From a virus (Duplodnaviria > Caudoviricetes): a DNA stretch of 53,118 bases. The stretch is taken from positions 1 through 53,118 of IMG/VR virus record IMGVR_UViG_3300020045_001235; one strand, written 5' to 3'. The notes under the pieces are model-generated. The model had not been told where the DNA came from. It made no database searches and saw only the letters and a list, made by a program, of their open reading frames with translations. The first letter of the stretch is position 1; every line of letters begins with the position of its first letter. A program made the position numbers and the translations under genes. Of this stretch, positions 31,312 through 35,530 are shown piece after piece.

Positions 31312-32454
31312 ATGAGTGACTATTCCGATTTGTTCTCTACCGGATACGACTTGGGGTCCGGCTTGGGTGGTAGTTATTACGGTGGCGATTACAGCACACC
31401 TCAATTTGATTTCGGTTTGTCCGACTTGAGCACCTTGCTGTCTACAGGTTACGACCTCGGGTCTGGGCTGAATCCAAGTTCAGGTCTTGACCTTGAGAGT
31501 TTGCTTGGTATCTCGATGTCTCCGTATGATTTCGGTGTGCCGCTGGATACGTCGTTGGGGGGTGGTCTATCGTCAAAGTACGGCGTACTCAGTGCGCTCA
31601 AAGACTATCAATCGCCAATGGGTTACGACTCAAGCGATACCGGTGTGGGTATTGAGTCGCCTGTACTTCCGAACACTTCGCAGTACAACTTCGGCAAAGA
31701 CCCTGACGCCTTTCAAACATACCTTAGCGACTTGAACAAGTCCTACGAAGCTCTCCCTACCATCGACGAGGAAGGTTTGAACCCCAAGTGGTTCTCTGAC
31801 CCACTGAAGGCTTACGAGAACAGCCTCCTTCCGTCGGTTGATATGGTGGCCCCTCAGTTGAGTTCTGCTTACCAGCAGAAGTACGGCGTCAATGCTTATG
31901 GCGAACCTACCAAGGTAGCCCCGTCAAACATTGCGTCGGCTCTGAAGGCGCTACAAGGCGCATTGAAGTTAGGCTCGTCCGCAGCGGCGCTGTACGGTCT
32001 TACGCAGTCCCCAACCCCGCCGATCAAAGCACGAGGTACGTCTGCTCCGGTCAGTTGGGGTGCAGCGCCGGCAACGCGCACGCCGCGTAAGTTCTACGCC
32101 AACGGCGGTCTGATTGAAGGCGAGCGTGAAGAATCTGAAGAAGGTGCGTGCGGCGGCGGTCTTGAGAGTGTTCTGATTGCACTGGCGAACAAGGCGATTG
32201 AAAAAGGATTGATTAAGGGTCATAGCGGCGGTCAGGATGACGATGTGACAATTGGAGCTTCGCCGGGTGAGTACGTACTCGATGCTGAAACTGTATCGGC
32301 ACTCGGGGACGGTAACACTGCTGCTGGCGCTAAAAAACTTGATGAAATGCGGTACAATCTGCGGCAACACAAGCGGTCTGCCGACTCCGATAGCATCGCC
32401 CCCAAATCACACTCCATAGAAGTCTATATTTCAGGAGGCAAACTCCGTGGCTGA
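31312..32454 (+). CDS. putative internal virion protein
   Basis: FYANGGLI and GGQDDDV...SPGEYVLDAETVSALGDG motifs. Confidence 0.65.
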   Translation: MSDYSDLFSTGYDLGSGLGGSYYGGDYSTPQFDFGLSDLSTLLSTGYDLGSGLNPSSGLDLESLLGISMSPYDFGVPLDTSLGGGLSSKYGVLSALKDYQSPMGYDSSDTGVGIESPVLPNTSQYNFGKDPDAFQTYLSDLNKSYEALPTIDEEGLNPKWFSDPLKAYENSLLPSVDMVAPQLSSAYQQKYGVNAYGEPTKVAPSNIASALKALQGALKLGSSAAALYGLTQSPTPPIKARGTSAPVSWGAAPATRTPRKFYANGGLIEGEREESEEGACGGGLESVLIALANKAIEKGLIKGHSGGQDDDVTIGASPGEYVLDAETVSALGDGNTAAGAKKLDEMRYNLRQHKRSADSDSIAPKSHSIEVYISGGKLRG

Positions 32455-35400
32455 TACAACTACAACTCAACCTGTTGGTGGGACGGTTCAGTATACGAAT
32501 CCTGCTTACTGGGAGCCATTCCTCCAGAACATGGGTAACTACGCCACGGGACTCCCCGAAATGGCGCAGAACACCTATCAGAATTGGTACAACCAGCCGC
32601 TGACCGCAGGGCCGTCTGGTAATACGCAGCAAGCCTACGATTTGGCAGGACAACCGAATCAGTGGACCCCTACAATCCAGAACGCCATCACTGGTTTGCA
32701 AGGTGCATATGGCCAGTACGCAGGTCAAGCTGAGAACTACCTCGGTCAGGCCGGCACACCCTTGATGCAAGGCTTCAACGCCCTCGGCCAAACTCAGAGT
32801 TCGGTCAGCAACTACCTCAACCAAGCCGACCAAGGTCAGATGGCGGCGAATTCGTCGTTGGGTGGTTATACCGGTGCTCAGAGTCTGATTGACGCAACGC
32901 CGGGTGCCGTTAGCGGTTACTTGGGTGGTATGGATCAGGCGCAGCAGGGCATTACGAATACGTTGGGTGGGTTTGGTACAGCGCAGAACCTTCTGAATCA
33001 AGCGCCAAGTTCCGTTACCAACTACCTGAATCAAGCTGATGTCGGTCAGCAGGACGTGAACAACCTGATGTCTGGCTATAATGCCGCACAAAACACGTTG
33101 GGTCAGACTCAAGGTGCTGTGGGTAGCTACCTCGGGGGTGTAGATCAGAATCAACAATCCATCGCCGACTACGCTTCCCAGATGGGCACGATGTTGGGCG
33201 GTGTCGGGTCGGGTACGAATTACTTGGCACAAGGTGCAGGTACGTTAGGTTCCACGATGGGGGCGGTCAACCCCTACTTGAGCAACGTCAGCGGCATTCA
33301 AAACCAAGCGTTGAACACCACGAACACGGGGTACGGTACCGCTCAGAACATGCTTGCAGGTACTCAAGCCGAAGTCAATCCGTATCTTGCAGCCGGTCAA
33401 CGTTTGCAGAACACGGCGCAGAACTACACCAAGCAGTCGGGGCAAGGTGTTCAGAATATCAACGCGGGGCAGTCTGCGGTCAATCAAGCGACCAACACAC
33501 TGGGACAAGCGACCGGAGCGGTCAATCCGTTCCTGAGTTCTACCGACGCCGCACAGCAAGCTGCAATGAATGCTCAGTCTGGGTACGACAAGGCGCAGGG
33601 GTACTTGGATCAAGCGCAAACTGCAATGTCCCCGTATCAACAAAGTGCTGATACTTCCCAAGCCGATGCGGCCAAGTACGCTTCGCAGATGGGTACTGCA
33701 CTACCGACGATTCAAAAGGGGTTGAGCTATCTGGACAACCTTGGTTCTTACCAGAATGAGGCGAGTTCTGCGTTCAATCAGATTGGCGACTACTCGGCAT
33801 CAGAACTGCAAAAGTACCTGAACCCGTTCACGCAGGATGCTGCCAACGCCACAGTCAGCGAACTGAATCGTAATTTGGAAGAGAACTTGCTCCCTGGAGT
33901 CAACAGTACGTTTGCCGGTGCAGGGCAGTTCGGCTCTACGCGCAATGCTGACTTCACCAACCGGGCGTATCGAGACACACAAGAAGCCGCTGCCAAAGCT
34001 CTTGCTGCTGCTAACTATGGTGCCTACAACAGTGCTCAAGGGTTCTACTCCGACTGGGAGAACAAGAATCTGGCGGCTGCTCAAGGTAAGGCGGGACTGG
34101 CCGCAAACCAGATCGGTGCTGCTAACGCTGCCGGTAATCTCGCAGGGCAGCAAGCGAACATCGCCCAACAGCAAGCTCAGATCGCCCTTGCGAACGCAGG
34201 TCTGGATCAGCAGCAGGCAAATGCCGTTGCGAACCTCATGCCTCAGTTGGCTCAGGTCAGCGGCAACATGACGACCGCACAAGTCTCCAGTGCGTTGCAG
34301 AGTGCCGGCTTGGATCAACAACAGGCTAGCACGGTTGCCCAGATGTATCCGCAACTGGCAAGTGCCTATACGCAAGCCGGTGCCACGTCTGGCAGCTTGG
34401 GTACTCAGAAGGCAAACATTGCTTCGCAGCAGGCGCAGACTTCGTTGCAGAACGCCGGCCTCAGTAACCAGCAGGCACAGACGGTTGCGAACTTGCTGCC
34501 GAACATCGCCAATTCGTTGGGTAACATGACCAACTCGCAGATCAACAACTACCTGACTTCTGCCGGACTGTCTCAGGGGCAAGCGAGCACCGTGGCGAAC
34601 CTCCTGCCGCAAATCGCATCTCAATACAACGCCGCTGCGCAGACTTCTGGCGCACTGTCGTCGGTCGGCTCCAACATCATCAACCAACAGATGCAAGGCG
34701 CTCTGGCAAACGCCGGTCTGGATCAGCAGCAGGCCGCAATCGTCGCAAACATGATGCCGCAGTTGGCTCAAGCGCAAGGGTCGCTCACGACAAGTCAGAT
34801 TTCCTCCAAGTTGCAGAGTGCCGGTTTGGATCAGCAGCAGGCCAACACTGTCGCCCAGATGTACCCTCAACTAGCTCAGACGCAAGGTGCTCTCACTACA
34901 AGCAGCATTGCCGCACAAGTTCAGAATGCCGGTCTGGATCAGCAGCAGGCCGCAATCGTCGCAAACATGATGCCGCAGTTGGCGCAAGCCAAGGGTAACT
35001 TGACGACCAGTCAGATTGCTTCGCAACTTCAGAGCGCCGGTTTGGATCAGCAGCAGGCTAACACTGTCGCTCAGATGTATCCGCAGTTGGCAGCGTCTTA
35101 CGGCTCGCTTGCAGGGCAGTATGGCAATTTGGCGGGGCAGTACGGCAACCTTGGTTCCAACCAAATGAACCTTGCTTCGACGCTGGGTAATCTGGCCGGC
35201 GCAGGAGCCAATCTGGGTCAGCAGCAGTTGTCGAATCTGGTTACTACAGGTACGGCGATGCAAGGGTTGCAGCAGAACGAACTCACCAACAACTACCAAG
35301 ATTGGTTGGCACAACAGAACTACCCGATTACGTCGATGGGTGCGCTGAGTTCCATGGCAGGTAATTTGAGTGGTGCTATGCGGCCGGATCAGTCAACGGT

Positions 35401-35530
35401 GCTGAATCAGACTTCTGGGGCTCAGAATGCCGCTGCCGCGATGCAGATTTTGAATTCGGGACTTGACCCTGCGACGATTCAAAGTTTGATGACTAGCTTG
35501 GGTCTGACCGCTCCGGCTACCACAGGTTAA
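32447..35530 (+). CDS. Gln/Ala/Gly-rich repeat protein, putative DNA ejection conduit
   Basis: GGAGG RBS plus GTG; 35/49-aa and 36/50-aa repeats around a YLNPF...AGQFGSTR core. Confidence 0.75.
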   Translation: MADTTTTQPVGGTVQYTNPAYWEPFLQNMGNYATGLPEMAQNTYQNWYNQPLTAGPSGNTQQAYDLAGQPNQWTPTIQNAITGLQGAYGQYAGQAENYLGQAGTPLMQGFNALGQTQSSVSNYLNQADQGQMAANSSLGGYTGAQSLIDATPGAVSGYLGGMDQAQQGITNTLGGFGTAQNLLNQAPSSVTNYLNQADVGQQDVNNLMSGYNAAQNTLGQTQGAVGSYLGGVDQNQQSIADYASQMGTMLGGVGSGTNYLAQGAGTLGSTMGAVNPYLSNVSGIQNQALNTTNTGYGTAQNMLAGTQAEVNPYLAAGQRLQNTAQNYTKQSGQGVQNINAGQSAVNQATNTLGQATGAVNPFLSSTDAAQQAAMNAQSGYDKAQGYLDQAQTAMSPYQQSADTSQADAAKYASQMGTALPTIQKGLSYLDNLGSYQNEASSAFNQIGDYSASELQKYLNPFTQDAANATVSELNRNLEENLLPGVNSTFAGAGQFGSTRNADFTNRAYRDTQEAAAKALAAANYGAYNSAQGFYSDWENKNLAAAQGKAGLAANQIGAANAAGNLAGQQANIAQQQAQIALANAGLDQQQANAVANLMPQLAQVSGNMTTAQVSSALQSAGLDQQQASTVAQMYPQLASAYTQAGATSGSLGTQKANIASQQAQTSLQNAGLSNQQAQTVANLLPNIANSLGNMTNSQINNYLTSAGLSQGQASTVANLLPQIASQYNAAAQTSGALSSVGSNIINQQMQGALANAGLDQQQAAIVANMMPQLAQAQGSLTTSQISSKLQSAGLDQQQANTVAQMYPQLAQTQGALTTSSIAAQVQNAGLDQQQAAIVANMMPQLAQAKGNLTTSQIASQLQSAGLDQQQANTVAQMYPQLAASYGSLAGQYGNLAGQYGNLGSNQMNLASTLGNLAGAGANLGQQQLSNLVTTGTAMQGLQQNELTNNYQDWLAQQNYPITSMGALSSMAGNLSGAMRPDQSTVLNQTSGAQNAAAAMQILNSGLDPATIQSLMTSLGLTAPATTG

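Follow-up and report, generated by a model that had tools for sequence, protein, structure and literature searches.

The virus record IMGVR_UViG_3300020045_001235 of IMG/VR (Duplodnaviria; Caudoviricetes) is 53,118 bases as a whole, with an estimated completeness of 94%, and all of it forms the window analyzed here. Its plus strand carries, in order, genes for a large terminase, a portal, a major-head-protein-like product, tail-fibre-like products and virion structural proteins, after which comes a divergent replication module. The gene under study, hereafter the target, lies on the plus strand at positions 32447-35530, stop codon included; it starts with GTG, encodes a protein of 1027 amino acids (aa), and was characterized by family searches and by its match to PHROG 4287. 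Two different repeat arrays flank a conserved core in this protein, as the first-pass annotation of the window had noticed. The two arms that they build are matched in length, and across homologues a change in either arm goes with a like change in the other.

A repeat-rich protein with two arms

All parts of the target are on the plus strand. The conserved N-terminal block (aa 1-84, 32447-32698) has nearly invariant residues P19 and Y48 and was found with a hidden Markov model (HMM) made from the query segment in 107 of the 167 sequences compared below; in the AlphaFold2 (AF2) model it has a strand at residues 14-17 and helices at 22-45 and 58-67. The N-arm (aa 85-447, 32699-33787) consists of nine units of 35/36 aa, two of them being 49 aa, with a degenerate stretch adjoining the core. 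The conserved core (aa 448-544, 33788-34078) is a helix-loop-helix that we take as the tip of a hairpin, and the core HMM is found in 166/167 sequences; AF2 places helices at 460-490 and 498-583 with a loop between them, and two-helix hairpins align to residues 443-545. Within the core, a nearly invariant tip motif runs from N-L to G-Q-F-G-S-x-R (aa 476-499, 33872-33943), with near-invariant columns at N476, L477, P483, N486, F489, G493, F495, G496 and R499. The C-arm (aa 545-908, 34079-35170) again has nine units of 35/36 aa, two being 50 aa, each with an A-G-L start, and a short G-Q-Y-G-N-L run after the repeat units. The C-terminal block and tail (aa 909-1027, 35171-35527) contain a Y-x-D-W-L...Y-P motif, nearly invariant Q943 and P960, and an AF2 strand at 981-984, and the C-domain HMM is found in 155/167 sequences.

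The protein as a whole is 25% Gln+Asn and 43% Ala+Gly+Ser+Thr, with 58 charged residues in all; the C-arm has 4 K/R and 6 D/E among its 364 residues. No hydrophobic segment was found in the target (best 19-aa Kyte-Doolittle mean 0.68). Two Arg/Leu/Cys-rich open reading frames (ORFs) run antisense over the gene (33800-34870, minus strand, 356 aa; 32330-33232, minus strand, 300 aa), and these are probably by-products of the repeat composition.

The first-pass annotation had counted eight anchors in each arm, with the same short and long spacings in reversed order. On the N side its spacings of 35, 35, 35, 49, 36, 49, and 35 aa are exact: V-x-x-[YF]-L anchors stand at residues 120, 155, 190, 225, 274, 310, and 359, and the eighth, at 394, reads M-S-P-Y-Q. 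The C side has nine AGL sites, not eight (549, 584, 620, 670, 706, 756, 792, 828, and 864, spaced 35, 36, 50, 36, 50, 36, 36, and 36 aa), the first of which had been missed. When the degenerate N unit at 85 and the short N unit at 394 are counted, there are nine units per arm, and the order of short (S, s) and long (L) units in the N-arm, S S S S L S L S s, is the exact mirror of that in the C-arm, S S L S L S S S S. By our own arithmetic, a mirror match of two long units placed among nine would come up by chance in about 1 of 36 cases, so the window by itself is suggestive and not decisive. The outer units alternate as originally described, NQAD with GGxD in the N-arm and NMMPQ with QMYPQ in the C-arm. 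The 14-residue inserts of the long units lie at ~240-253 and ~325-338 in the N-arm and at ~639-652 and ~725-738 in the C-arm; in a fold-back they are opposite one another within ~5-15 residues after the family baseline offset. The periodicity of an amphipathic helix is present in both arms, well above shuffles, with a hydrophobic period of 3.5 residues in the N-arm (power 172, where 95% of shuffles lie below 48) and periods of 3.6 and 7.15-7.2 residues in the C-arm (power 72 and 115, against 53).

Arm lengths across the family

A search of 1.84 billion representative proteins gave 604 relatives at E ≤ 1e-3, most of them about 290-400 aa, and 150 of the 604 are the matches listed. Relatives match the target in three stretches, namely, the N-terminal block, the core, and the C-terminal block. 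The arm-length set comprises 167 sequences (the target and 166 that were fetched); HMMs for the three blocks were built from the target and iterated on the fetched proteins, and the N-arm was measured as the gap from N-block to core and the C-arm as the gap from core to C-block. All three blocks are found in 99 members, which make up the main correlation; it leaves out the 68/167 sequences without a detectable terminal block or core. Co-variation of the arms, which the first-pass annotation had put forward as a check on its proposal, is evident in these 99 members (Pearson r = 0.995, Spearman 0.983). Their N/C arm lengths span 10/0 via 51/42, 93/85, 135/128, and 199/193 to the 368/365 aa of the target, the longest form among the matches listed, with relatives down to no arms at all. 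The base size of the family is 290-316 aa, and its range extends from about 233 to 1027 aa.

Arm lengths change together along the phylogeny as well, in line with the further first-pass proposal that each duplication in one arm had its counterpart in the other. Independent contrasts, computed on a conserved-block tree, correlate between the arms at r = 0.997, and the contrasts that are non-zero in both arms share their sign in 78/78 cases. In 21/33 sister pairs the N-arm lengths are 7 aa or more apart, and the C-arm changes in the same direction in 21/21 of these, with N,C differences such as (7,7), (43,43), (-71,-72), and (-115,-117). A second set, taken from DNA, corroborates the first: 45/80 IMG/VR loci were measurable and give r = 0.993, adding forms shorter than the base, with the proviso that these loci may overlap in phages with the protein set. 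A cruder measure based on motif distances in 29 proteins gives r = 0.95 versus a maximum of 0.69 in 1000 permutations, and the motifs on the N side and on the C side stand equally far from the G-Q-F-G-S loop (difference typically -4 aa).

The way in which the arms lengthen differs between short and long forms. Short-arm members change in matched heptad steps, and the C-arm length is a multiple of 7 in 48/65 of these forms. Long-arm lineages have tandem repeats that are unrelated between lineages and of near-equal period in the two arms of each protein: the N/C periods are 35/36 in the target clade and 14/14, 16/18 (four lineages), 21/22, 23/25 (four), and 28/29 elsewhere. Unit numbers are equal in the two arms and the C units are 0-3 residues longer. 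An N repeat and a C repeat together seem to make up the structural unit. Relative to a 683-aa family member (P0001), the target has gained 169 aa in the N-arm and 172 aa in the C-arm, that is, two long and two short units per arm.

The neighboring genes do not follow these changes. At one IMG/VR locus (L016:6800-7555), whose hub protein is 60% and second downstream protein 40% identical to those of the window, an armless version of ~240 aa, in a 252-aa stop-to-stop frame, stands between neighbors of similar size. Across 44 loci no co-scaling of neighbor length with arm length was seen: the Spearman coefficient is -0.32 for the first downstream ORF (p 0.036, uncorrected for phylogeny) and -0.06 for the second. 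Since neighbor sizes do not scale and the armless form sits between unchanged neighbors, hairpin length behaves as an independent variable. A ruler for capsid size was considered and rejected, as the longest hairpin is found in a 53-kb genome and armless forms in 57-62 kb contigs.

Predicted fold and the alternatives to it

AF2 modelled the target from 80 aligned sequences (mean pLDDT, the predicted local distance difference test score, 68.8; predicted template-modelling score, pTM, 0.32) and a 380-aa relative with arms of 51/42 from 69 sequences (pLDDT 69.7, pTM 0.41). The core is built of two long helices joined at the G-Q-F-G-S loop, which is a tight turn of 6-7 residues in both models. The C-arm of the target is modelled at pLDDT 80-96, with one 16-22-residue helix and one of 10 residues per unit and breaks at A-G-L-D turns. 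In the model of the 380-aa relative, long helices cover residues 70-107, 142-172, 179-239, and 246-335; FliJ aligns to it over 129 residues across 46-327, which places its N-arm and C-arm helices side by side, and an Smc arm aligns across 45-315. Each model has just two beta-strands, one close to each terminus, and because DSSP assigns strands only to bonded partners, the two probably pair and close the base of the hairpin, a pairing read from the secondary-structure string and not from coordinates or a contact map. Taken together, the mirrored unit order, the midway loop, the terminal strands, and the alignments across 46-327 strongly imply that the chain folds back with its arms antiparallel, and we infer from this that the arms physically pair.

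No structure search gave a significant match. Foldseek against the PDB gave nothing at E ≤ 1e-3 with either model, the weak and non-significant top rows for the 380-aa relative being chemoreceptor (Tsr/MCP; methyl-accepting chemotaxis protein), MukB, and Smc hairpins. The VIA wide structure search with both models found only generic helical hairpins (Z ≤ 9.4, inside the stated noise). A PDB sequence search with the target gave nothing at E ≤ 1, and a profile search gave three chance-level rows (best E 0.22). The ESM Atlas returned only viral clusters, among them a P22_gp7 cluster at 0.89, which is a lead only, and the neighbors among BFVD predicted structures are all from uncultured tailed phages, some fused to other domains. 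One of these neighbors of the hairpin-family model is a 904-aa DUF4214 protein; as a DUF4214 match also occurs in a gene close to the target (below), the DUF4214 protein and the hairpin protein may be fused in some phages.

Of the other explanations, the one that survives best, improbable as we hold it to be, is that the arms do not touch and instead form separate helical-repeat stacks along a common partner (an ejection protein, the portal barrel, or DNA) that forces equal unit numbers. AF2 does build confident helix-turn-helix units for the C-arm alone, and unit numbers match better than residue numbers (16 vs 18, 23 vs 25). Residues 753-882 also match the Pfam family mTERF above its cut-off (29.6 vs 23.1 bits), and TAL effectors are the top weak Foldseek rows for the target (E 0.02, probability 0.23), although with TM-scores below 0.1. 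Even so, members whose short arms have no repeats gain and lose heptads in step, an antiparallel alignment is required by the mirrored succession of long and short units, the terminal blocks are predicted to meet, and neighboring proteins do not scale with arm length. Four K/R in 364 residues is likewise unlike a DNA-wrapping repeat. A DNA-wrapping repeat of the mTERF/TAL type was set aside as improbable, the near lack of K/R arguing against it.

Somewhat less probable again is antiparallel pairing between subunits, as in a domain-swapped dimer or a head-to-tail filament, rather than within one chain. Length matching and mirrored order are equally expected from such an arrangement, and the ejection proteins described in the papers cited below act as oligomers. 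Against this, both AF2 monomer models probably close the chain through pairing of the N- and C-terminal strands and have the tight tip loop between two helices, and the armless forms of ~240 aa are too compact for an open, swapped default.

A probable ejection role and the gene neighborhood

The function of the family is suggested by PHROG 4287, labelled 'DNA ejection protein' in that database, which matches 10/10 scanned homologues (E 1.7e-27 for P0120, 2.4e-18 for P0099, and 3.6e-4 for the weakest, P0027). Two relatives, P0139 and P0120, have an SLT transglycosylase domain after the C-block. Other additions are an N-terminal, Gly-rich hydrophobic extension resembling a Gly-zipper in P0065 and ~620 unexplained residues beyond the C-block at loci L034-L037. 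A tblastn search of GenBank phages with the complete target sequence had no hits, which the low-complexity filter probably accounts for; with the core alone, it matched only four Caulobacter phages. The single sequence of orf16 of phage PaP3 against the family profile gave a probability of 55% (E 1.2e-4), and hhalign of 33 orf16 relatives against 69 family members gave 97.6% (E 3.6e-12, 147 columns over core and C-block); this makes the target a homologue of the gp56 class of Bruynoghevirus. PaP3 orf16 shares with the target family the loop A-G-Q-[FY]-G-S-x-R (A-G-Q-Y-G-S-S-R in orf16) and the C-motif W-x-x-x-N. The base sizes are alike, 313-314 aa in Bruynoghevirus and 290-316 aa in the target family. 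The 33 aligned Bruynoghevirus members are 295-330 aa, to which the target adds arms of 2 x 365 aa, and their N-terminal part does not align with the N-terminal block of the target.

By size and position, PaP3 orf16 appears to correspond to gp56 of phage Pa223. This 313-aa protein was found in virions by mass spectrometry and is proposed to form an outer-membrane channel, and its AlphaFold3 model was a hollow channel only when nine copies were used (10.1101/2025.06.11.659172). The same source assigns gp59 as the hub, gp58 as the needle, gp54 (505 aa) as the periplasmic tunnel, and gp53 (1,055 aa) as the inner-membrane complex. This homology and the transglycosylase fusions of the relatives lend support to the first-pass idea of an ejection tube.

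The genes around the target fit this assignment. Three genes upstream is a 577-aa virion protein (28065-29798, plus strand; PHROG 3287) that is homologous to PaP3 orf13, itself a match of the Pa223 tail hub by size and position; it has homologues in 71/80 loci and also in Caulobacter phage RW and pelagiphage HTVC023P. It is followed on the plus strand by a 499-aa protein (29800-31299) with an N-terminal DUF4214 match and a C-terminal half rich in Gly/Ala/Ser, and by a conserved 380-aa neighbor (31312-32454) with homologues in 58 loci, whose gene overlaps the start of the target by 8 nt. The long Gly/Ala/Ser/Leu-rich C-terminal half of the 499-aa protein resembles a glycine-zipper membrane segment. 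Downstream, also on the plus strand, a 586-aa protein (35541-37301) stands where Bruynoghevirus has its periplasmic-tunnel protein (about 505 aa), and a 918-aa protein (37302-40058) stands where it has its inner-membrane-complex protein (about 1055 aa). The window order of 577, 499, 380, target, 586, and 918 aa thus has the same hub-to-large-protein arrangement as PaP3, where orf13 (513 aa) is followed by proteins of 229 and 144 aa, orf16 (314 aa), and proteins of 127, 507, and 1056 aa. The 586-aa protein has Thr-Pro-Ala repeats at about aa 283-318 (A-P-A-T / T-P-A-T units) that resemble a flexible linker in the middle of the protein.

This setting bears on a further possibility, which we regard as very unlikely, that the target is a tail tape-measure protein whose length sets that of a long tail. 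In its favor, the protein is helical and rich in repeats and varies in length, and a lytic domain is present in some relatives. For the Caulobacter RW cluster, where a family member occurs, Table 1 of PMC11053796 lists a 'tail tape measure protein', and an upstream ORF in the window has weak matches to tape-measure PHROGs (E 3.5e-4). No tail tube, sheath, or tape-measure chaperone was found in PHROG scans of 39 window ORFs, however, and no tape-measure family matched the target. Base forms of 233-300 aa are too short for this function, the structural module is common to the podoviruses Bruynoghevirus and HTVC023P (placed in Podoviridae in PMC9599517), and the class of the Pa223 homologue is internal virion protein. 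Finally, the reading in which low-complexity, Q/N/A/G-rich sequence gave rise to the pattern by chance has practically no probability left, because the high content of Q+N and A+G+S+T and the modest odds of the mirror match are outweighed by the 604 homologues, the arm-length correlations with their permutation maximum, the phylogenetic contrasts, the IMG/VR loci, and a periodicity far above shuffles, and we count it already refuted.

We therefore favor, with a probability of about 0.68, the reading that the target is a length-tunable helical-hairpin internal virion (ejection) protein of a short-tailed phage, with its arms antiparallel and matched in length. Several observations weigh against it. 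Three homologues lie off the line (P0034, 83/42; P0062, 82/61; P0104, 51/58). In the 44 proteins in which the N-block was not detected, the number of residues before the core, used as a proxy for the N-arm, gives r = 0.79 and is off by more than 25 aa in 7/44; N-terminal extensions explain the outliers P0065 and P0068 and do not explain P0146. A simple coiled coil of two strands would not be expected to have the 0-3 extra residues per C unit. Most of the N-arm is modelled at pLDDT below 50 (residues 99-199, 217-238, and 246-314) in a model whose pTM is the low value given above, and the short helix-turn-helix units of the C-arm imply that the arms may be a repeat stack, which makes their length in nanometers uncertain. 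The target's own match to PHROG 4287 is weak (E 6.9e-4, 19.9 bits, residues 367-618). Bruynoghevirus members have a Gly-rich hydrophobic tail, and five membrane helices are predicted for Pa223 gp56 (10.1101/2025.06.11.659172), whereas the target has no hydrophobic segment.

The DNA of the repeats must be weighed here as well. C-arm units aa 756-791 and 828-863 (window positions 34712-35091) are 88% identical, other pairs 47-74%, and N-arm unit pairs 47-59%. With 88% in the C-arm and 59% in the N-arm, the paired duplications are not visibly simultaneous. Since the 683-aa relative already carries alternating C units, the 88% identity would reflect homogenization (or recent replacement) among C-arm repeats and not an unmatched recent duplication.

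Under the favored reading, the common blocks would be an N-terminal one of ~80 aa, a central helix-loop-helix of ~100 aa with the G-Q-F-G-S-x-R loop, and a C-terminal one of ~85 aa. The chain would turn back at the loop, with the N-arm and C-arm antiparallel, and the terminal blocks would meet at the base to give one long alpha-helical hairpin. The arms of short forms would pack as a coiled coil, and those of long forms perhaps as stacked rungs of an N unit and a C unit. Length would evolve by gain or loss of segments in both arms, heptads in short forms and tandem repeats of 14-50 residues in long ones, with only matched arm states persisting. After ejection, several hairpins may assemble into a helical channel or rod like that of T7 gp14 and phiKMV-like gp41, in which arm length would set the reach. 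At 1.5 Å per residue a fully helical hairpin would reach ~7 nm without arms and ~60 nm in the target, and much less if built of helix-turn-helix stacks.

A bolder proposal, which we consider possible and on balance unlikely, is that the hairpin is an evolvable, modular trans-envelope conduit, extended from ~7 to ~60 nm by paired repeat duplication and spanning whatever envelope or surface layer the host has. Long forms might then take over part of the role of the periplasmic tunnel, and the Gly/Pro breaks in each unit could allow compact helix-turn-helix storage in the capsid and straightening to continuous helices at ejection. Straightening into continuous helices has been reported for gp41 of a phiKMV-like phage, whose hairpin is much shorter (10.64898/2026.05.18.726046).

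Elsewhere in the window, large terminase is encoded at 5097-6743, portal at 6819-9482, and the major-head-protein-like product at 13960-14865, all on the plus strand, and the divergent replication module includes a DUF927 primase-helicase (40948-44052). Two homing/HNH endonuclease ORFs lie within the structural module on the plus strand, one just 5' of the terminase genes (3516-4487) and one directly after the major-head-protein-like gene (14919-16172). Further PHROG matches are a holin-like ORF adjoining the portal gene on its downstream side (9910-10329, plus strand), a GroES-like ORF (11439-11846, plus strand), a 'starvation-inducible transcriptional regulator' family ORF within the structural module (26064-26414, plus strand), and a dCTP deaminase in the replication arm (52439-52981, minus strand).

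Comparison with known systems

T7 gp14 and phiKMV-like gp41, which form a hexameric channel of alpha-helical hairpins after ejection (PMC8954989; 10.64898/2026.05.18.726046), have the same role as that proposed for the target family. A structural comparison is given by 7ey7 chain A, which covers residues 38-139 and so agrees with the fragment of gp14 (37-139) that PMC8954989 describes. This chain aligns to the family core hairpin with Z of 9.2 and 8.5 and rmsd (root-mean-square deviation) of 4.6 and 4.4 Å over 100/102 residues, and comes second and third among 48,161 chains for the two models' cores; these Z values are still within the helical noise, which extends to about 13. There is no sequence similarity between these proteins and the target. 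Proteins like gp14 are ~180-240 aa with a size variation below 30% and four or five predicted membrane helices (PMC8954989), whereas the target family varies four-fold in size, up to the 1027 aa of the target, and is without such membrane helices.

In phiX174 the genome passes through a helical tube, that of the H protein, whose lining consists chiefly of amide and guanidinium side chains (PMC7354561). The H tube is a decamer of single piloting proteins and not of hairpins, and its likeness to the nearly uncharged, Gln+Asn-rich target is compositional only. In the arms of SMC, MukB, and Rad50, N- and C-terminal helices pair antiparallel and their lengths must match, which is a likeness in principle only, as these proteins have ATPase heads and a hinge that are absent from the target. 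The arm lengths of SMC, MukB, and Rad50 co-vary.

Ejection proteins of podoviruses are hard to study, and the papers cited here leave open what sets the reach of their channels. The target family offers a natural series from ~233 to 1027 aa in which only hairpin length changes and the flanking ejection genes keep their size, in a component that may assist the passage of phage DNA through the bacterial envelope. It makes testable the relation of hairpin length to host envelope thickness, the need for matched arms, and the hairpin as the wall of a tube. Helical-hairpin ejection proteins and symmetric insertions and deletions (indels) around a hairpin tip are already known, the latter from chemoreceptors (PMC5907407). 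A literature search at the level of titles and abstract openings gave no description of an ejection protein with a length series that is four-fold, driven by repeats, and matched between the arms.

The best-known precedent for symmetric indels around a conserved tip is the chemoreceptor hairpin, which is long and antiparallel, has a conserved tip, and carries symmetric heptad indels in both arms (PMC5907407). The two families are related neither in sequence nor in function, and neither the target nor the relatives scanned matched an MCP Pfam family. Indels in the target family are likewise matched in both arms around a conserved tip. They go beyond the heptads of the chemoreceptors to whole tandem repeats of 14-50 residues and to arms of 0 to about 365 aa, which makes the family a clean viral example of a chemoreceptor-type constraint that is satisfied by independent tandem-repeat expansions in two parts of one gene.

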